Source of the DNA: Thermodesulfovibrionales bacterium
Lineage (GTDB): Bacteria; Nitrospirota; Thermodesulfovibrionia; Thermodesulfovibrionales; JdFR-86
Assembly (NCBI GenBank): GCA_030682405.1
Contig: JAUXOF010000082.1
Span: 1,211 to 65,210 of the forward strand
Length of the DNA: 64,000 bases
Direction of reading: 5' to 3'
Shown: positions 4,335 through 55,247 of the stretch, piece after piece
Layout of the letters: each line of letters begins with the position of its first letter
Position numbering within the stretch: position 1 is the first letter of the stretch
Made by a program: the position numbers and the translations under genes
The notes under the pieces: generated by a model
What the model was told of the DNA's origin: nothing
What the model saw: only the letters and a program-made list of their open reading frames with translations
Database searches by the model: none

Positions 4335-5468
4335 TCATTCGCCACTCTCGGCAACTTGCCGTAACGCAAGAAATGCTTCCTTGAGAGTCTGGCTTACGGA
4401 TGAGTCAGGCTCGTTCAAGACAAGGGTTTGATAAGCATTAAGATAACTGTTACGAATACGGTGAAATAGATGCAAGAAATGCCTCAAAAAACCGATGCAA
4501 TCGAGAACGGCTATCTCAATACCGCCGGTCTCCTCATAAAACTTAGATGCATACGCTGTAACATCCGGGTCTATTTTATCAGTGGTCACAAAGATATAAT
4601 TGTGAATTTGCCCCTTCGTTTTACCTATCTTAGTAATGGCTACATCAATATCATTAACCGTTACTCGTTTCATTTTCATCTCATATACCGTAACTACAGA
4701 ATCGTCACCAATAAGGCATATTTCCACGTCGCCAATTGAGCCTGTTTGCAGGTCTGCCGCGTTGTGAGACTGGAGATATATAAGCCGCTCGCCCAGCCGT
4801 TCCCCCGCGGCTTGATAGGCCGCGGCCACAATCAACACTGGTAAGCGACTTGCATTTTTACAAGCAAGATGTTGGGCGACAAGCGAAACAATAGCCTCAG
4901 ACGAAAGAGGCAATGCTCCTTCTGTGCGTTTTAATGCTTCCAATAGGGACGTCATGCGTGCAAGCTTTTCATCACGCAGTTTCAATAAAACACGCACTGT
5001 TTCTACCAAAAGAGTATCGGCAGAAACTTTATTTTCAGCTACGTCAGTCAAAAGCTGTAATGTTTTTTTGTAGAGTTCACGTGGTCTGCCAACGAGTTCT
5101 CGGTCGGTTGTTAGTGCATGGTCGATATTGCGGAGCGTCGGGGTTAAAAATGCCGTAGTGGGATTACAAGGCAAACGATGTTTATTGATGAAGCCTGTGA
5201 GGTATTGCTCGTCATAGGTTCGTCCGGAAAAACTGTCTTCCGAACCGATTTCCGTATAAGGCTTGCGTGGGTCAACTTTAGGATTATCCAATTTACCGAG
5301 AAGACATGACATGAGTAGACGCACGCCAGCACGATTGCTCATGCACCGACAAACAAAATCGACACGCTCACGGATTGCAACATCACTGATTACCGACTTT
5401 TTAGGATTCGCTAATGCTTGTTTATAAACCTTTTGTAAAATTTGTTCCGGTGCGCTGGGGGTTTTCAT
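4335..5468 (-). CDS. Putative type II restriction endonuclease (PD-(D/E)XK-like), cognate to the adjacent methyltransferase
   Basis: 377 aa. Its start overlaps the stop of the upstream Dam-like MTase. Candidate catalytic motif SIGDVEI ... VYEMKMK (D-Xn-E-X-K). AT-rich relative to flanks. Confidence 0.5.
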   Translation of the reverse strand: MKTPSAPEQILQKVYKQALANPKKSVISDVAIRERVDFVCRCMSNRAGVRLLMSCLLGKLDNPKVDPRKPYTEIGSEDSFSGRTYDEQYLTGFINKHRLPCNPTTAFLTPTLRNIDHALTTDRELVGRPRELYKKTLQLLTDVAENKVSADTLLVETVRVLLKLRDEKLARMTSLLEALKRTEGALPLSSEAIVSLVAQHLACKNASRLPVLIVAAAYQAAGERLGERLIYLQSHNAADLQTGSIGDVEICLIGDDSVVTVYEMKMKRVTVNDIDVAITKIGKTKGQIHNYIFVTTDKIDPDVTAYASKFYEETGGIEIAVLDCIGFLRHFLHLFHRIRNSYLNAYQTLVLNEPDSSVSQTLKEAFLALRQVAESGE

Positions 5469-6406
5469 TCGAATAAACTCTTCTGTTTTTTAGGGTTATA
5501 GTTTGTCCAAAGCACCTCTCTCCGGATGCCTTTGGTAGAATGAATCGTTCTGTCTGCTCCTGAAGTTTTAAACCAGCGCGGAGACGGAAAAAACTTATCC
5601 ATTAGAGGATGAGCGTATCCTGAGACGGCGACCTTACCGCGGCATTCATTAAGCACTTTTGCGAACTCGTAGTACTGTCCTTCATCCATCTCGAAGCTGT
5701 ATGCGTTGGAGTCACCACGTGTAGCGTGGAGATAGGGCGGGTCGCAGTAAAATAACGTTCCGAGGTTGTCATAAAGCCGTATGACGTCTACCGCAGGCCG
5801 ATTCTCTATCTGCACTCGAATAAGACGCTGTGCTATATCGTCAAGCACGCTAACCCCGCCAAGCCAACGCGATACGACGCCAGACATTCCAGATCGACTA
5901 GTGTCTTTACAATTAGCCCAACGTCCGAGTGAAGCAGTTTGGGCAAGTCCAGTGCGCGTTTGGCGGGCGCGTATGTAAAAACGCCTTGCTCGTTCAACGT
6001 CACTGATTCCCTGCATATTGCCATAAATGGCAATGTAATATTCCTCGCGTGAAAAAGGCGTCAAAGCAATAGAACGGATAAGCTCTTCATGTCGGGCACG
6101 TAATACTTTAAAGAAGTTCACCGCATCACCGTCTATATCGTTATATGTTTCTACCGGAGATGGGTCACGATTAAGCAATACAGCCCCCGAGCCAGCAAAA
6201 GGTTCGCAATAGTGGTGGCACTTTGGTAATAATGGAAGCAACCAGGCAAGGTGTGAAAATTTACCACCATACCAACCGAATACAATCCGACGACGACGAT
6301 GTCGGAGATAGATTAAATTTGATTGTTTTGGTGCAAATTCTTCATCCAAATAAATAGGGGAACCGCCCCGCTTATTTTGACTTTCTTTTTGTACCTTGTT
6401 CATCAT
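5465..6406 (-). CDS. D12-class (Dam-like) N6-adenine DNA methyltransferase
   Basis: WYGGK motif near the N-terminus, SAM-binding EPFAGSGAV, catalytic DPPY (FYCDPPYLHATRG). Confidence 0.85.
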   Translation of the reverse strand: MMNKVQKESQNKRGGSPIYLDEEFAPKQSNLIYLRHRRRRIVFGWYGGKFSHLAWLLPLLPKCHHYCEPFAGSGAVLLNRDPSPVETYNDIDGDAVNFFKVLRARHEELIRSIALTPFSREEYYIAIYGNMQGISDVERARRFYIRARQTRTGLAQTASLGRWANCKDTSRSGMSGVVSRWLGGVSVLDDIAQRLIRVQIENRPAVDVIRLYDNLGTLFYCDPPYLHATRGDSNAYSFEMDEGQYYEFAKVLNECRGKVAVSGYAHPLMDKFFPSPRWFKTSGADRTIHSTKGIRREVLWTNYNPKKQKSLFE

Positions 6407-7301: not shown

Positions 7302-8395
7302 GCCGTAAAGAACGCCTCTACAATCCCGGGGTCAAACTGCCTTCCTGCATACTTCCTGAGCTCACTAAAAGCGGTCTCCGCACTGAGGGCCTTTCTGTAC
7401 GGCCTGTCCGTTGTCATGGCATCGTATGTGTCGGCCACGGCGATTATCCTTGCAGAAAGATGTATATCCCCGTCCTTGAGCCCGTCGGGATAGCCTGTGC
7501 CGTCATGTTTTTCATGGTGTCCCCTGACCCCGGGGACGATGTCCCTCAGTTGCCTGATGTGCCCGAGTATTTCGGAGCCGTATCCTGGGTGCATTTGCAT
7601 CGCCTTCAGTTCCTCAGGCTCAAGCCTGCCCTCTTTCAGAAGGACGCAGTCTCGGATGCCGATTTTTCCGATGTCATGGAGTATGGCGGAAAGCTTCAGG
7701 TTCTCAAGCTCCGCCCTGCCAAGCCCCATCGAGCGTCCGATTGCAAGGCTGTAGTTCATCACCCTTCTTGTATGGCCTCCTGTATAGGGATCCCTTTTCT
7801 CTATTGTCTCGGCAAGGGCCTGCGCCGTGCCGTAGAATGTCTCTTTAAGCTCCTGATAGAGGTTTGCGTTTTCCACTGCAACAGCCACCTGATTGGAAAG
7901 GGCCTCAAGTATGTCGGCATCCTCGCGGTCGAACTTGCCGCTGCGCTTGTTTATCACCTGAAGGACTCCCAAAATCTTCTCCTTTGTCCTGACCGGCGCG
8001 CATACGAGGTCATGAGTGACGAATTCGCTTTTTTTGTCCGCCCCCTTAAAGAACCTGGGGTCTGACTGCACATCAAGCACGACAACCGTCTCGCCGTGCT
8101 CGGCAACCCAGCCTGCGATGCCCTGCCCCTTCTTGAGCCTTACCTCCTTGAGCTTGTCCCCCTTTTCGCCGAGGGCAACCTCAAAAAAAAGCTCTCCGGT
8201 CTCCTTGTCTATAAGAATAATGCTTCCGGTCTCGGCGCCTGTAAGCCTTGTGGCCGCCTCTATCGCCCGCCTTCTTACCTCGCGCGTCTCAAGCGTGGAG
8301 TTGATAAGTGCGGTCAGCTCTATCAGAGTACTGAGCTGCTCGAGCTTTTTCAGAGACTTATCGTCCATTACTCCCGGCATCTCTAAACCTGTCAC
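7274..8395 (-). CDS. GAF domain / HD-GYP domain protein (putative c-di-GMP phosphodiesterase)
   Basis: GAF-like N-terminal half. HD (ILHDIGK) and HHEKHDGTGYPDGL signature in the C-terminal half. Confidence 0.85.
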   Translation of the reverse strand: MTGLEMPGVMDDKSLKKLEQLSTLIELTALINSTLETREVRRRAIEAATRLTGAETGSIILIDKETGELFFEVALGEKGDKLKEVRLKKGQGIAGWVAEHGETVVVLDVQSDPRFFKGADKKSEFVTHDLVCAPVRTKEKILGVLQVINKRSGKFDREDADILEALSNQVAVAVENANLYQELKETFYGTAQALAETIEKRDPYTGGHTRRVMNYSLAIGRSMGLGRAELENLKLSAILHDIGKIGIRDCVLLKEGRLEPEELKAMQMHPGYGSEILGHIRQLRDIVPGVRGHHEKHDGTGYPDGLKDGDIHLSARIIAVADTYDAMTTDRPYRKALSAETAFSELRKYAGRQFDPGIVEAFFTAWKEGEIVL

Positions 8396-21074: not shown

Positions 21075-22197
21075 TTATTTTTTGCCCCCTACGGTCCCCT
21101 TAAGCGCCTCTTTAATGAAAACTCCTATGTTACCGCCAAGCACTGAGTCCACGTCCCCTACCTCAATCCCGGTCCTATGGTCTTTTACAAGCCTGTAGGG
21201 CTGAAGCACATACGAGCGTATCTGGCTTCCCCATGCAATGCCCTTCTTATCCCCGCCCGCGCCCTCAATCTTTTTTTCCTGAGCTCGAAGCCCTATGTCA
21301 TAGAGCCTTGCCCTTATTACCTTCAGGGCAACCTCCTTATTCCTGTGCTGGGAGCGCTCGTTTTGACAGGAGACTACAATGCCGGTGGGCAGATGGGTTA
21401 TCCGCACGGCAGAGGAGGTCTTATTCACATGCTGACCCCCGGCGCCGGAGGCCCTGAAGGTGTCAATTTTTAAATCGTCCTCTTTTAGGTCAACCTCCAC
21501 ATCGTCCTCTATCTCAGGGTAGACGATGACAGCGGAAAAGGAGGTGTGCCTCCTTTTATTGGCGTCAAAAGGGGATATCCTCACAAGCCTGTGCACACCG
21601 CTTTCTGTCCTAAGATGCCCGAAGGCGTAAAGGCCCCTTACCGTAAGGGTTACCCCTTTAATCCCGGCCTCATCCCCGGGCTGCATGTCCACAACCTGTG
21701 TTTCATAGCCGTTAGCCTCGGCCCACCTGAGGTACATCCTCAAGAGCATCTGCGCCCAGTCCTGACTCTCGGTGCCCCCTGCCCCCGGGTGTATGGTAAG
21801 AATCGCATTGCCCCTGTCAAACTCGCCTGAAAGGAGATATCGTATCTCAAGCTCGTCGAGAAGGGACTTGAGTTTTTTTATCCCGGCGGTGAGTTCCTCA
21901 AGGAACATCTCCCCTTCCTCTTCATCAAGCACGCCGACCGAGCCCTTAATGTAGGAAAGCCTGTCTGATGCCGTAGAGAGGGGATTAAGGACATCCTCGT
22001 AAGAGGACTTCTTTTTCCGCAGTTCCTGCATCCTCCGGGGGGACGACCATGTCTCCTCCATGGCAAGCTCCCCCTCGATGCCGGCTATTTCCCGCTTGAG
22101 CCTCTCCGTATCAAAGATAACCTCGGAGGTAGTCTATCTTTTCCTCCAAAAGGATGAGTTCCTTCTGTATATCCTCTTTAAGCACAGCACCCCCCAT
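21075..22197 (-). CDS. prfB: Peptide chain release factor 2, with programmed +1 frameshift
   Basis: Frame-0 leader MGGAVLKEDIQKELILLEEKIDYLRGYL ends at CTT TGA (TGA at 22111-22113). The +1 frame continues DTERLKREIAGIEGELAMEETW... into the 328-aa ORF, which contains SPF and GGQ motifs. Confidence 0.9.
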
Positions 22198-22326
22198 GGT
22201 TGTAAAAAATAAACCGGAATCCGGTTGGCAAAGACAATTCTTCTTATTTTAGCATAAATATCCGGGCCAAATCCAGAGGCAGCGGGTTTCGGCAACCCTG
22301 CTGCGGAAACCCCTCTTAGCACAACT

Positions 22327-35500: not shown

Positions 35501-35829
35501 CCCCTCTTTCTCCTTAATATTATGAAGGCCGTTGCCGACAGCGCGCCTAAGGTGTTTGCCGCCTCGTCAAGGAGCGAGAAACTCCTCGTTGCCGTAAGCC
35601 CCTGCAGGCCTTCCATCAAAAGGCCGTAGCCTGCGGAAAGGGCAAATGACGCTGCTAAGGCCGTCCAAAAGGGCTTCTTTTTTGCAATCACAGTAAAGAG
35701 CAGGACGCATGTTATGGCGTATATGATGAAATGGAGGATTTTATCCGAATGCTGAACCTTTGAGCTTGCTTCAAGGGGCAAGACGGAAAGTGCAAATACG
35801 ACAACCAACCACACGATTACTGTTTTCAT
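35497..35829 (-). CDS. VanZ-like membrane protein
   Basis: 110 aa, 4 TM, DKILHFIIY motif. Confidence 0.65.
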   Translation of the reverse strand: MKTVIVWLVVVFALSVLPLEASSKVQHSDKILHFIIYAITCVLLFTVIAKKKPFWTALAASFALSAGYGLLMEGLQGLTATRSFSLLDEAANTLGALSATAFIILRRKRG

Positions 35830-36650
35830 GTTGCAAGGCTCCGTTCATAAAGCTCTTTTTTGCTGAGGCCGTACTCCTCTGCAACCGTTTTCACGGCCTC
35901 TTTTCTGCCTCTGCCTTTCCTGATGAGCAGCAGCACTTCCTCAAGGGCCTCCTCAAACGAGCCCTGCTGCCTCTTTTTTCCCTCAACGACTATAACATAC
36001 TCCCCGGCAGTAGTACTTTCCTCAAGGAGCGAGATTATATCAGGGATGCTTCCCCTCAGGGCCTCCTCATGGACCTTCGTAATCTCCTTTATGACGCAGG
36101 CCCTGCGGCTGCCTAATATCTCCTCCATGTCGGCAAGGCTCTCAAAGAGCCTGTGCGGGGCCTCGTAAAAGAGGAGAGTCCTTTGTTCGAGGCTCAGTCC
36201 CTTGAGGGCCTTTTGCCTCTGGGCGCTTTTTGCCGGAAGAAAGCCTATGAATGTGAATTCCTCTGTCGGAAGCCCTGATACTGACAGGGCGGCTATGAGG
36301 GCCGAAGGCCCGGGTATGGGGATGATATTAATGCCGGCTGCGAGGGCCTCGCGGATGAGCACGGAGCCGGGGTCTGATATGCCGGGCGTGCCTGCATCCG
36401 ATATGAGGGCCACGGACTGGCCTTCCATGAGCTTTTTAAGAACCGCATCTGATTTGACCTTTTCTCTTTCCCCCCAGTAGCTTATGAGGGGCTTTGATAT
36501 GCCGTAGCGGTTGAGGAGCTTCAGGGAATGCCTTGTGTCCTCAGCCGCGATGATGTCAACCTCTTTTAGGACATTGAGGGCCCTTATCGTTATGTCATCG
36601 AGGTTGCCTATGGGGGTGGCGACTATGTAGAGGGTGCCCTTCAGTGTCAG
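35826..36650 (-). CDS. rsmI: 16S rRNA (cytidine1402-2'-O)-methyltransferase
   Basis: The ORF-track 200 aa extends upstream in frame as (L)TLKGTLYIVATPIGNLDDITIRALNVLKEVDIIAAEDTRH... No ATG is available, so a CTG start at 36650 or 36644 is inferred. Confidence 0.8.
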   Translation of the reverse strand: MTLKGTLYIVATPIGNLDDITIRALNVLKEVDIIAAEDTRHSLKLLNRYGISKPLISYWGEREKVKSDAVLKKLMEGQSVALISDAGTPGISDPGSVLIREALAAGINIIPIPGPSALIAALSVSGLPTEEFTFIGFLPAKSAQRQKALKGLSLEQRTLLFYEAPHRLFESLADMEEILGSRRACVIKEITKVHEEALRGSIPDIISLLEESTTAGEYVIVVEGKKRQQGSFEEALEEVLLLIRKGRGRKEAVKTVAEEYGLSKKELYERSLAT

Positions 36651-36740
36651 TCCCCGATGTTTCCCTTGAATTCATGTAGCCACTTGTTCCGCATAAACCC
36701 TCCTTTGGCGCATGTTTAAATAGTATTATATCATTACTTT

Positions 36741-37043
36741 TCAGTTGCCCCTTGCGGACTGAAGTATGGAATATGCCGTAAGCCCGATGCTTACTGCCGC
36801 GGTTATCCACAATATCCTTTTGCTCCACGGGCTTATGTTCCCCTTGCCCGAATAAGTCCTGTAGAAGGCCAGTCCCAACAGCGACATCGTTGCCGCTATA
36901 AAGAAAGGCCTGTAGTTGTTAATCCACGCGCCGAATGTGACGCTTGCCAGCCCCAAACTGGCCAGCACGATGTTTATCTGTCATATGAAAGCAGACAAGA
37001 AGGCCGAGGTCAGCGCTCCGCCCTTCAGGGACGAGCATCTCAT
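36741..37043 (-). CDS. MerT-like small membrane protein with in-frame TGA (candidate selenocysteine at codon 21)
   Basis: ATG at 37043 preceded by GAGGG. MRCSSLKGGALTSAFLSAFI-TGA(36981-36983)-QINIVLASLGLASVTFGAWINNYRPFFIAATMSLLGLAFYRTY... is continuous in one frame. Resembles MerT TM1-TM2, with the TGA at the Cys-Cys position. Confidence 0.55.
36942..36966 (-). promoter_or_regulatory. SECIS-like hairpin downstream of the in-frame UGA
   Basis: mRNA GCUGGCCAG-UUUGGGG-CUGGCAAGC (9-bp stem with one mismatch, G-rich 7-nt loop), starting 14 nt after the UGA. Confidence 0.4.
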
Positions 37044-37053
37044 CTTAAAGCCC

Positions 37054-37695
37054 TCATATAGTCATCACCCGTCTTGCCGTTCTCATTCCGTCCATGAGCA
37101 CGGCCATTCCGCCGGCCTGACCTACCCTGAGCCTGTCCTCAAGGCCGAAGTGCTTAAGGCATGTGCTGCAGGTGTATATCTCCGCGCCTTTAGATTCAAA
37201 CTCCTTAAGCAGGGAGACGGTCTCGTCGGACTCGGTTGTGAGCATCACGCCTGAGTTCATGAAAAACATAAATGCAGGGATGTCGTCCGTAACCTTCATT
37301 GTCTCAAGGAACGCCTTAATAAGCAGCTTCCCCAAATCCCCTTCTTTGCCGAAGGTGTCCCTTGAGACAACTATCGCCATGTCCCCAAGCCCTTCGGCCT
37401 CAGGCTTATGCCTGAAGGCGTTCAGCATCCGCTTTAAGACGCCCTCCTTTGGGGGTCTGCTGTGGGGCGTCTTTACAATCCTGAGTTCCCAGTGATTATC
37501 CTGTTTTTTCTGCTCGAACCACAGGCCGGATTTCTTCGCAAGCCTCTCTATGTTCCAGTTGGATGGGCTTTCCACAAGAACGACGAGCGCTCCCTCCTTT
37601 ATGAGGTCAAGCTCCTCCTGCGTCTTTTTAAGCGGCTCCGGGCATCTAAGCCCCCTCAGGTCCAATATTTTAGGTTCCATAGGTCCCCCCCCCAT
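37054..37695 (-). CDS. yedF: YedF-like sulfurtransferase-type selenium metabolism protein (TusA/SirA domain + DsrE-like domain)
   Basis: TusA motif LDLRGLRCPEPLKK. C-terminal CxxC (YTCSTCLKHFG). About 200 aa, matching the YedF family description. Confidence 0.75.
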   Translation of the reverse strand: MGGGPMEPKILDLRGLRCPEPLKKTQEELDLIKEGALVVLVESPSNWNIERLAKKSGLWFEQKKQDNHWELRIVKTPHSRPPKEGVLKRMLNAFRHKPEAEGLGDMAIVVSRDTFGKEGDLGKLLIKAFLETMKVTDDIPAFMFFMNSGVMLTTESDETVSLLKEFESKGAEIYTCSTCLKHFGLEDRLRVGQAGGMAVLMDGMRTARRVMTI

Positions 37696-54305: not shown

Positions 54306-55247
54306 ATGAACCCTAAAGTTTTTATAAGCCACGCCAGTGAAGATAAACAAAGATTTGTCCTCGATTTTGCTACCAAGCTACGCTCTAAAGGAATAGATGC
54401 CTGGATAGATAGATGGGAGATGCTTCCTGGTGATAGTCTCGTAGATAAGGTATTTGAAGAAGGCATTAAAAATGCTCAGGCTGTAATAGTAGTGCTCTCA
54501 AAGAATAGTGTTAATAAGAAATGGGTTCGTGAAGAATTAAACGCAAGCATGGTTAAAAGGATTAATAAAGGAAGTAAGCTTATCCCTGTGGTTATAGACG
54601 ATTGTGAAGTTCCTGAGTGCCTGGAATCAACTGTATGGGAAAAAATAGACGATTTAAATAATTATGCAACTGAACTGAATCGAATAGTGATGTCAATATA
54701 TGGGCAGACCGAAAAACCGCCCTTGGGTAACCCTCCTGCATATACCGAAACCATAATTGATACTCTGCCAAATCTTACCAATATAGATAACATAATTCTT
54801 AAACATGCTTGTGAAAAGGCAGTTGAAAGTGGTATGCCATCTATTGAGACCGAAAGTATTTTAGGTGATATAAAATCACAGGACATACCAGAAGATGAAC
54901 TTATAGTTTCGCTCGAAGTGCTAGACAAAAATGGATACATCGAAATTCACGGAGATTCGGGAGGTGGAATACCATACTTTAACATCTCGCTATACGGATT
55001 TTATGAATATGCAAAAAAGTATATCCCCGATTACAACAAAATTGTTGATTCAGTTGCCTTCCAAATTGTTAATCTGAACATGGAGGATAATAAATCTATT
55101 TCAGCATCTTTAAATCAACCTCAAATGATTGTTGACCATATCTTAGATTTACTGGAAAGTAAAGGCTATATTACTCTTGCTAAAACCTTTGGATTAACTC
55201 ATATAGTTAGAGTTTTTCCAACTTTAGAACGCATATTGAAAGAATAA
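54306..55247 (+). CDS. TIR-domain protein with uncharacterised C-terminal half
   Basis: N-terminal TIR pattern KVFISHASEDKQRFV...GIDAWIDRWEMLPGDSL...AVIVVLSKNSVNKKWVREEL. AT-rich. C-terminal half has two similar segments (LDKNGYIEI..., LESKGYITL...). Confidence 0.85.
   Translation: MNPKVFISHASEDKQRFVLDFATKLRSKGIDAWIDRWEMLPGDSLVDKVFEEGIKNAQAVIVVLSKNSVNKKWVREELNASMVKRINKGSKLIPVVIDDCEVPECLESTVWEKIDDLNNYATELNRIVMSIYGQTEKPPLGNPPAYTETIIDTLPNLTNIDNIILKHACEKAVESGMPSIETESILGDIKSQDIPEDELIVSLEVLDKNGYIEIHGDSGGGIPYFNISLYGFYEYAKKYIPDYNKIVDSVAFQIVNLNMEDNKSISASLNQPQMIVDHILDLLESKGYITLAKTFGLTHIVRVFPTLERILKE

Follow-up and report, generated by a model that had tools for sequence, protein, structure and literature searches.

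A candidate selenocysteine-containing MerT-like membrane protein encoded next to yedF in a Thermodesulfovibrionales genome

A 64,000-nt stretch of DNA from a Thermodesulfovibrionales bacterium (phylum Nitrospirota; contig JAUXOF010000082.1, positions 1,211 to 65,210), which we call the window, carries on its minus strand a small MerT-like gene that contains an in-frame TGA and lies directly downstream of yedF. From comparison of this gene with its relatives, we conclude that it is very probably a genuine selenocysteine (Sec)-encoding member of the MerT superfamily. The explanation that best accounts for the locus as a whole, and that we consider likely, is that yedF and the MerT-like gene form a tightly linked, probably co-translated two-gene cassette in which UGA at codon 21 would be decoded as Sec (Sec21), with a presumed relay from the membrane protein to YedF.

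All positions given without a contig name follow the numbering of the whole window. The frame of the MerT-like gene runs from an ATG (37043-37041) through 20 sense codons to the in-frame TGA, and from there through 79 sense codons to a terminal TGA. The joined product is MRCSSLKGGALTSAFLSAFI-U-QINIVLASLGLASVTFGAWINNYRPFFIAATMSLLGLAFYRTYSGKGNISPWSKRILWITAAVSIGLTAYSILQSARGN, in which the part after U begins QINIVLASLGLASVTFGAWINNYRPFF and the residues across Sec read LSAFI-U-QINIVLASLGLASVTFGAW. An original prediction, made from this DNA alone, had proposed this frame; the sequence reads exactly as quoted there, including the Shine-Dalgarno sequence and the 10-nt gap between yedF and the MerT-like gene. 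That prediction had also pointed out that a 75-aa ORF (open reading frame) starting at GTG is the only one listed here, as we confirmed. A purine-rich ribosome-binding site was looked for upstream of this GTG, and none was found. The features of the locus are as follows.

36741..37043, minus strand: coding sequence of the MerT-like candidate selenoprotein; 100 codons including Sec21, terminal TGA at 36743-36741, same architecture in seven loci
36981..36983, minus strand: in-frame TGA, putative Sec21; invariant codon in 7/7 loci, at the hydropathy maximum of the first transmembrane segment (TM1), in the column of the second Cys of the MerT CC pair
37035..37037, minus strand: codon for Cys3; TGC or TGT in 7/7 loci, in an N-terminal M-[KR]-C-S motif, predicted to be cytoplasmic
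37051..37055, minus strand: Shine-Dalgarno sequence GAGGG; overlaps the yedF stop codon (37056-37054), 7 nt ahead of the ATG
36741..36968, minus strand: GTG-started ORF of 75 aa; sole piece given by ORF finding, a truncation artefact of the full gene
36945..36967, minus strand: candidate bacterial SECIS (selenocysteine insertion sequence) hairpin; UGCUGGCC-AGUUUGG-GGCUGGCA, 8 bp, -11 kcal/mol, loop 21 nt after the UGA
37054..37695, minus strand: yedF; TIGR03527 at 151.1 bits (cut-off 110), Pfam domains TusA (with the CPEP Cys) and DsrE-like (with CxxC)

Conservation of the in-frame TGA and its flanks

The evidence for readthrough of the TGA is comparative. Under the loose criteria of a scan for pairs of ORFs bridged by TGA, the window alone gives 102 candidates, so a single sequence is insufficient for significance and it is comparison between relatives that decides. 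None of these 102 is convincing as a selenoprotein apart from the MerT-like gene. A search of 5.8 billion proteins returned only six relatives, all of 66-75 aa, with variable starts just downstream of the TGA column. Reading the contigs of these relatives upstream in frame gave, with the window, seven distinct assemblies from five lineages, at 59-97% identity. (Contigs of relatives carry L numbers and database proteins P numbers; the loci of this clade are the window, L001, L003 and L006-L009.) All seven have an ATG, the M-[KR]-C-S motif and a conserved hydrophobic segment ending A-F-[IL]; the TGA occupies one and the same column and is followed by Q-[IV]-N-I-V-L-A. The original prediction had reckoned with homologues that uniformly start after the TGA and lack TM1. 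That is how the proteins are stored, but the DNA carries the upstream ORF and the TGA in each case, and the starts are truncations made by gene callers.

The 20 codons upstream of the TGA evolve as protein-coding sequence, judged by their pattern of substitution. Between L006 and L007 this segment has five synonymous and no non-synonymous differences, and other pairs show 4-9 codon differences that are synonymous only. The upstream segment of L008 has an insertion of 12 nt (four codons) that keeps the frame. Among degenerate columns with an invariant residue, codon usage varies in 22/23 downstream of the TGA and in 4/4 upstream. The TGA itself and codons +5 to +7 (GTG CTG GCC) never vary among the seven sequences. 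Because synonymous sites are otherwise saturated, retention of the TGA is not a consequence of short divergence time.

These comparisons bear directly on whether the TGA is an artefact. Sequencing error for TGC or TGT, a decaying pseudogene, or reassignment of TGA to Trp or Gly could each produce an apparent in-frame TGA. Two observations might be taken to favor something of the kind: the adjacent rsmI gene in the window has a possible indel error (described below), and JGI translations of two relatives print W at the TGA. However, the TGA is present in seven independent assemblies from different projects, which excludes sequencing error, a possibility that the original prediction had raised, and both flanks of the TGA carry a signature of purifying selection. 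TGA is also used as a normal stop in this genome. The window encodes RF2 (release factor 2), and the RF2 gene has its own TGA frameshift site.

21075-22200, minus strand: prfB (RF2); +1 frameshift site TAT CTT TGA, with CTT TGA at 22116-22111; the ORF list holds the post-shift part only

In addition, TGA terminates 16 of the 41 family-supported genes in the window, yedF and the MerT-like gene among them. Reassignment of the codon is therefore excluded. We rejected sequencing error, pseudogene decay and TGA reassignment, which together have a next to negligible chance of explaining the locus.

Candidate SECIS hairpin and decoding of the TGA

In the published bacterial SECIS consensus, the apical loop has 3-9 nt with G in its first two positions, followed as a rule by G or U (PMC13188914). 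The upper stem is 4-16 bp, the spacing from the UGA is 16-37 nt, and the minimum free energy is -7.5 kcal/mol or lower (PMC13188914). By its sequence and computed fold, the candidate hairpin in the window is within this consensus. Other members of the clade have a GGCC/GGCC upper stem, a loop of [A/G]GUUU[A/G] and a short lower stem. Across the clade, the loop is 6-7 nt (beginning A-G-U in the window), the stem is 4-8 bp and the spacing is 21 nt. The stem alone has a computed energy of -6 to -11 kcal/mol, and the 49-nt segments one of -10.5 to -17 kcal/mol. A compliant hairpin was found in all 13 of the Sec-type MerT-like loci examined, including relatives outside the clade; its loop begins 21-27 nt past the UGA and has G in its first two positions. 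In L017, one of these relatives, the hairpin has an unrelated stem, GCAUCGCUC/GAGCGGUGU, and the loop GGUCU. The codons GTG CTG GCC (Val, Leu, Ala), which form the 5' arm of the hairpin, are invariant at the nucleotide level in 7/7 loci, a signature of an overlapping RNA constraint.

One alternative is that the TGA is a true stop. The locus would then consist of a 20-codon leader ORF followed by an independently started, two-helix membrane protein of 66-79 residues. Gene callers and database entries all give the downstream piece only, the GTG at codon +5 is conserved, and no Sec machinery was found in the window. However, the two pieces are in one frame in 7/7 loci, even in L008 with its insertion, and homology to TM1 of MerT runs across the TGA. 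Called starts differ inconsistently between homologues, the GTG lacks a ribosome-binding site, and a start there would halve TM1. The invariance of the GTG is shared with the next two codons, which fits the arm of a hairpin. We consider termination at the TGA very unlikely, and favor decoding of the TGA as Sec.

Several results weigh against that preference and need to be set beside it. First, the stability of the hairpin is unexceptional in most of the sequences: the one in the window was matched or bettered in 11 of 1000 codon shuffles (1-13% across sequences), and fold z-scores are mostly unexceptional (-1.35 for the window; -0.1 to -2.5 in the clade). RNAalifold found no compensatory covariation among the seven segments of TGA plus 60 nt from the YedF-linked clade. 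No Rfam family was found in the window at the gathering threshold or in a 211-nt region at E <= 10; bacterial SECIS elements are poorly covered by Rfam, and this null is uninformative. Second, UGA followed by C is a leaky stop context. It occurs in all copies in the clade, and on sequence alone a low level of readthrough that does not insert Sec is possible. Third, selA, selB, selC, selD and tRNA genes of any kind, that for Sec included, are absent from the 64 kb of the window, as judged by a tRNA scan, Rfam and the domains of about 60 ORFs. Fourth, the clade is small, with seven contigs and, in a scan of genome contigs, two GTDB species representatives. Both are metagenome-assembled genomes (MAGs) of Nitrospirota, and for this reason the lineages are not fully independent. 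Metagenome contigs scanned with protein patterns, and with a degenerate DNA pattern open to TGA, TGC or TGT, gave no members of the clade. No Cys-form orthologue within the YedF-linked clade was found in database, genome-contig and metagenome-contig scans.

With respect to Sec decoding in these organisms, selB and selC have been reported in Nitrospirae (PMC13188914). L001, a 105-kb JGI contig, provides evidence from within the clade. A gene for a thioredoxin-fold protein directly upstream of its yedF was also split at a TGA by the gene caller.

L001 4804-5319, plus strand: AhpC/TSA-like (thioredoxin-fold) gene; called as two genes, continuous through TGA (FFASW-U-IRC), directly upstream of yedF

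The W-U-x-x-C sequence of this protein is that of a classic UxxC selenoprotein, and we therefore take the L001 organism to be one that decodes Sec.

Relationship to MerT and to other Sec-containing families

The original prediction described the protein as MerT-like, and this description holds, with reservations. In profile searches run with U replaced by C, Pfam MerT (PF02411) matched residues 6-66 at E=3.9e-5 and NCBIfam merT_RC607 (NF033560) matched residues 10-94 at E=2.8e-8, so that homology extends across the TGA in both cases. However, all scores from MerT-family models are under the curated cut-offs, and this counts against the assignment: 24.1 bits (cut-off 32.9) for PF02411, 34 bits (cut-off 130) for NF033560 and 20.4 bits (cut-off 150) for PRK13751. 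The first Cys of the MerT pair and the cytoplasmic Cys pair are also missing. All ten Sec-type relatives tested match merT_RC607 weakly.

An exhaustive phmmer search with the 79 residues after the TGA against 1.8 billion representatives gave 18 proteins, including the full-length, Cys-type MerT-like proteins P0018, P0023 and P0024. In these three, TM1 has a CC pair whose second Cys occupies the Sec column, and this column is among the few that are invariant in the alignment. A CC pair with its second Cys in the Sec column is also present in P0037 and P0039-41. Thus, the alignment that the original prediction had given, with the TGA on the second Cys of the MerT pair, is borne out, and both Cys-type and other Sec-type relatives exist at this position.

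The predicted protein has three hydrophobic segments, with Sec21 at the hydropathy maximum of the first. Six basic residues are predicted inside and two outside, which favors a topology with the N-terminus in. By these predictions, the protein would be a three-TM, 100-residue inner-membrane protein with a cytoplasmic N-terminus. There is no solved structure of MerT for comparison. MerT has the same approximate length, three TM helices and the N-terminus inside. The two proteins also share G-A-L/V-x-S-A in TM1, L-A-x-L-G-L after the chalcogen residue and Y-R-P at the start of TM2. In both, a reactive chalcogen residue occupies the second position of the TM1 pair, Cys in MerT and, if our reading is right, Sec here. 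In contrast to MerT, the first position of the pair is Ile or Leu in 7/7 clade loci, and the Cys pair of the cytoplasmic loop between TM2 and TM3 is deleted, with the loop shortened to Y-S/T-G-K/R-G-N-x-S-P. The clade instead has an invariant Cys3 in a positively charged N-terminus. Also unlike MerT, the gene has no merR, merP, merA or HMA genes near it in the window or in L001-L009.

Selenoproteins of the MerT type are already known. A "putative mercuric transport protein" is listed among selenoprotein families (PMC1976440; PMC9312934), and such a protein has been described with the motif C/SxxU, for example ABB16073.1 (PMC13188914). Haft described a "small set" of selenoproteins in the MerT family that carry a CU motif (bioRxiv 10.1101/2022.07.06.499078). 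The YedF-linked clade has in common with these the superfamily and a Sec in the metal-binding site of TM1. It differs from them, as they are described, in having the motif [I/L]-U rather than C-U or C/SxxU, and in its partner gene, which is yedF and not one of the mer, ars or HMA genes. It also differs from the MerT/CopZ fusion selenoproteins: the score against NF045683 (MerT_CopZ_Se) is 11.6 bits (cut-off 375), and there is no fusion to CopZ or HMA. None of the curated models in the profile libraries that we searched covers the clade. We conclude that the clade shares a superfamily and a Sec position with known selenoproteins, and that its Cys architecture is distinct and its partnership with YedF is new.

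The C-U forms among our relatives are L012/P0010, P0025, L015 and L017. In the CU-type relatives L012, L015 and L017, which fall in separate clades at 34-45% identity, the TGA is in the identical alignment column and the hairpin in the same place. In P0010 (L012 5001-5287) and P0025, JGI records print W for the TGA (YTFC-TGA-QLPLVLAG), hiding Sec as tryptophan. L017 (1-4249; Chloroflexota MAG GCA_004297765.1) contains a mer operon in which MerB is itself split by an in-frame TGA (IVGCT-U-PLINFFC). The CU-type MerT-like Sec gene of this operon (ASIC-U-LGPLVFASLGL) follows genes for MerA, MerT, LGT and an HMA protein. Both MerB and the CU-type protein are stored in truncated form.

A sister clade has Leu before Sec (P0009 and P0027-P0036; L013 and L018; also L014) and is 41-52% identical to the YedF-linked clade. 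The two clades share a hairpin at the same distance, GGCC-GGUCUU-GGCC in the sister clade. One member of the sister clade comes from a Nitrospirota MAG, and the database entries of this clade are truncated in the same way. The sister clade differs in having no adjacent yedF, a longer N-terminal region and another placement of Cys. The Nitrospirota member (P0036; L018 5784-13938) has its [L]-U MerT-like Sec gene at 7857-8243 through the TGA, directly after a gene for a LysR_Sec_metab regulator (NF040786, 252.8 bits; cut-off 250). The Sec gene is followed by a 34-aa ORF with a TM segment, a DVU_1556/ArsM-like methyltransferase, three double-cubane/HGD-D proteins and an activase, and a fragment of the MbdU double selenoprotein is upstream. 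This region of L018 may be a cluster for processing selenium or a metalloid.

Copies of the YedF-linked clade in NCBI, JGI and ENA are truncated, and those with a name are called hypothetical proteins. All database copies of this clade and its sister clades are stored without a name and cut at the UGA, so that small MerT-like proteins with Sec are systematically under-annotated. Marking the Sec column in a model of the family would set dozens of entries right and give better selenoproteome counts in Nitrospirota and other anaerobes.

YedF, the proposed relay and the rest of the window

The neighbor upstream of the MerT-like gene is, as the original prediction had stated, a YedF-type protein with TusA and DsrE domains, and it scores above the cut-off of the TIGR03527 model. 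The listed yedF ORF begins MGGGPMEPK and all homologues begin MEPK or MESK; translation probably starts at the ATG at 37680, which is preceded by a G-rich ribosome-binding site. Cys18, Cys177 and Cys180 of the YedF alignment are invariant across loci, and the CPEP and C-[SG]-[TA]-C motifs are kept. yedF is directly upstream of the MerT-like gene in every clade locus with a readable upstream flank, and it is the only conserved neighbor. The junction is an ATGA overlap in L001 and a gap of 9-47 nt in other loci. In two further contigs (L004 5288-5912 and L005 3820-4444), yedF was called as two genes of 85 and 108 aa, with a frameshift at an A-run between ILKK and IVNT. The gene is intact in the near-identical L003, and the split is probably an assembly error. 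The window as a whole is an origin-proximal housekeeping region, with dnaA, dnaN, gyrB, gyrA, yidC, prfB, lepA and rib genes. No yedE or mer genes were found among the approximately 60 window ORFs that were scanned.

As a genomic marker of selenium use in bacteria, YedF ranks among the best. To our knowledge, there is no answer yet to what YedF does biochemically, or to how selenium passes across the membrane to SelD. A membrane selenoprotein encoded beside yedF, with its reactive residue at the position where MerT binds Hg(II), is a simple and testable candidate for the missing membrane step. In our literature searches, no publication connected MerT-like proteins with YedF.

Two known arrangements resemble this one. 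In each of the YedE/YedF (FdhT/FdhU) and YeeE/YeeD (TsuA/TsuB) pairs, the membrane protein has a reactive Cys or Sec, and the gene beside it encodes a cytoplasmic partner of the TusA fold; the YedF of the YedE/YedF pair belongs to the same family (TIGR03527) as the neighbor in the window. The pairs have been linked to the biogenesis of selenium-dependent formate dehydrogenase and to genomes with SelD (PMC5322559). The YedE/YeeE family includes Sec-containing members with a GUxSG motif (PMC13188914). The membrane partner here differs in being a MerT-like protein of 3 TM segments and 100 residues rather than a PF04143 protein of about 10 TM segments, and there is no sequence similarity between the two; the MerT-like protein gave no match to PF04143 at E <= 1.

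In MerT, Hg(II) goes from the Cys pair in TM1 to cysteines on the cytoplasmic side, and a soluble acceptor takes it over from there. By analogy with MerT, YedE/YedF and YeeE/YeeD, we postulate that Sec21 could capture a thiophilic species within the membrane. The captured species would most likely be selenium, either as selenide or as a Se-S adduct in a selenenyl-sulfide or diselenide intermediate. From Sec21 it would move on to Cys3 on the cytoplasmic face, and from Cys3 to YedF, at either the TusA-type CPEP Cys or the DsrE-type CxxC. The small selenoprotein might thereby take the place of the 10-TM YedE, which is the neighbor of YedF in other bacteria. The relay from Sec21 through Cys3 to YedF is a proposal by analogy. 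Selenium is favored as the substrate because YedF is statistically tied to genomes with SelD and to maturation of selenium-dependent formate dehydrogenase (PMC5322559), because the sister clade adjoins a selenium-metabolism LysR regulator, and because the pair is without accompanying metal-resistance genes. We put forward this specific role in selenium relay tentatively, as one that the pair may have.

The same selenoprotein could instead be an importer or chelator of the MerT type for a soft metal such as Hg(II), Au, Cd, Cu(I) or As, with Sec providing higher affinity and YedF replacing MerA/NmerA as the cytoplasmic thiol acceptor. The nearest named families are all mercuric transporters, a CU-type relative belongs to the mer operon of L017, a genuine one that also encodes MerB, MerA, MerT and an HMA protein, and the CU-type gene of L015 adjoins ArsR/PadR and chromate-transporter genes. 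Most transporters that contain Sec have been assigned to metal or metalloid resistance (PMC13188914). However, merR, merA, merP, HMA and arsR genes are near none of the seven YedF-linked loci, and the clade has neither the first Cys of the TM1 pair nor the cytoplasmic pair of cysteines by which Hg(II) is handed over. In addition, YedF has no known metal role, and the neighborhood in the window is one of housekeeping genes rather than a resistance island. We consider a metal substrate unlikely.

Sulfur is another conceivable substrate. In this case, the selenoprotein would import persulfide, polysulfide or thiosulfate sulfur, or transfer it, to the TusA and DsrE domains of YedF, much as YeeE/YeeD (TsuA/TsuB) do with thiosulfate, and the pair would have its place in the sulfur metabolism of a Nitrospirota organism. 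TusA and DsrE, the two domains of YedF, are both sulfur-relay folds. Two rhodanese genes are about 4 kb downstream in L001, DsrAB-like NIR_SIR genes are nearby in L018, and annotations describe YedE/YeeE proteins as transporters of sulfur or thiosulfate (PMC5322559; PMC13188914). Against this, the neighbor is assigned to YedF, not to TusA or DsrE, by a selenium-specific equivalog model whose cut-off it exceeds, the sister clade adjoins the selenium-metabolism regulator, and the surroundings of the pair have no conserved dsr, sox or hdr genes. We consider a sulfur relay, too, unlikely.

If the substrate is indeed selenium, a more far-reaching and rather doubtful extension can be imagined. The pair could be a minimal, self-contained system for acquisition and relay of selenium that replaces YedE-YedF in some Nitrospirota, with incoming selenium captured as a Se-Se or Se-S intermediate by a Sec buried in a TM helix and delivered via Cys3 to YedF for SelD. 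If this were so, the importer of selenium would itself require selenium, and the pair would give a first mechanistic handle on how YedF acts.

Some other features of the window are recorded here. The rsmI gene directly downstream of the MerT-like gene (35826-36713, minus strand) has an open frame of 281 codons in which no ATG, GTG or TTG occurs before codon 82. An ATG with a ribosome-binding site (AAGGAGGGTTTATG, at about 36694) is in another frame that stops after 15 codons. One extra G in a GGGG run (at about 36650-36700) would join the frames, giving MRNKWLHEFKGNIGGLTLKGTLYIVATPIGNL. The anomaly is probably a homopolymer indel in the assembly; otherwise it would be a real frameshift or an unusual start. 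At 54306-55247 (plus strand), a 313-aa TIR-domain protein (TIR_2, with a ThsB-like match) is encoded amid housekeeping genes. At 4335-6406 (minus strand), a gene for a D12-class adenine methyltransferase lies beside an ORF of 377 aa that has no Pfam match, and the two may be a restriction-modification or defence pair.

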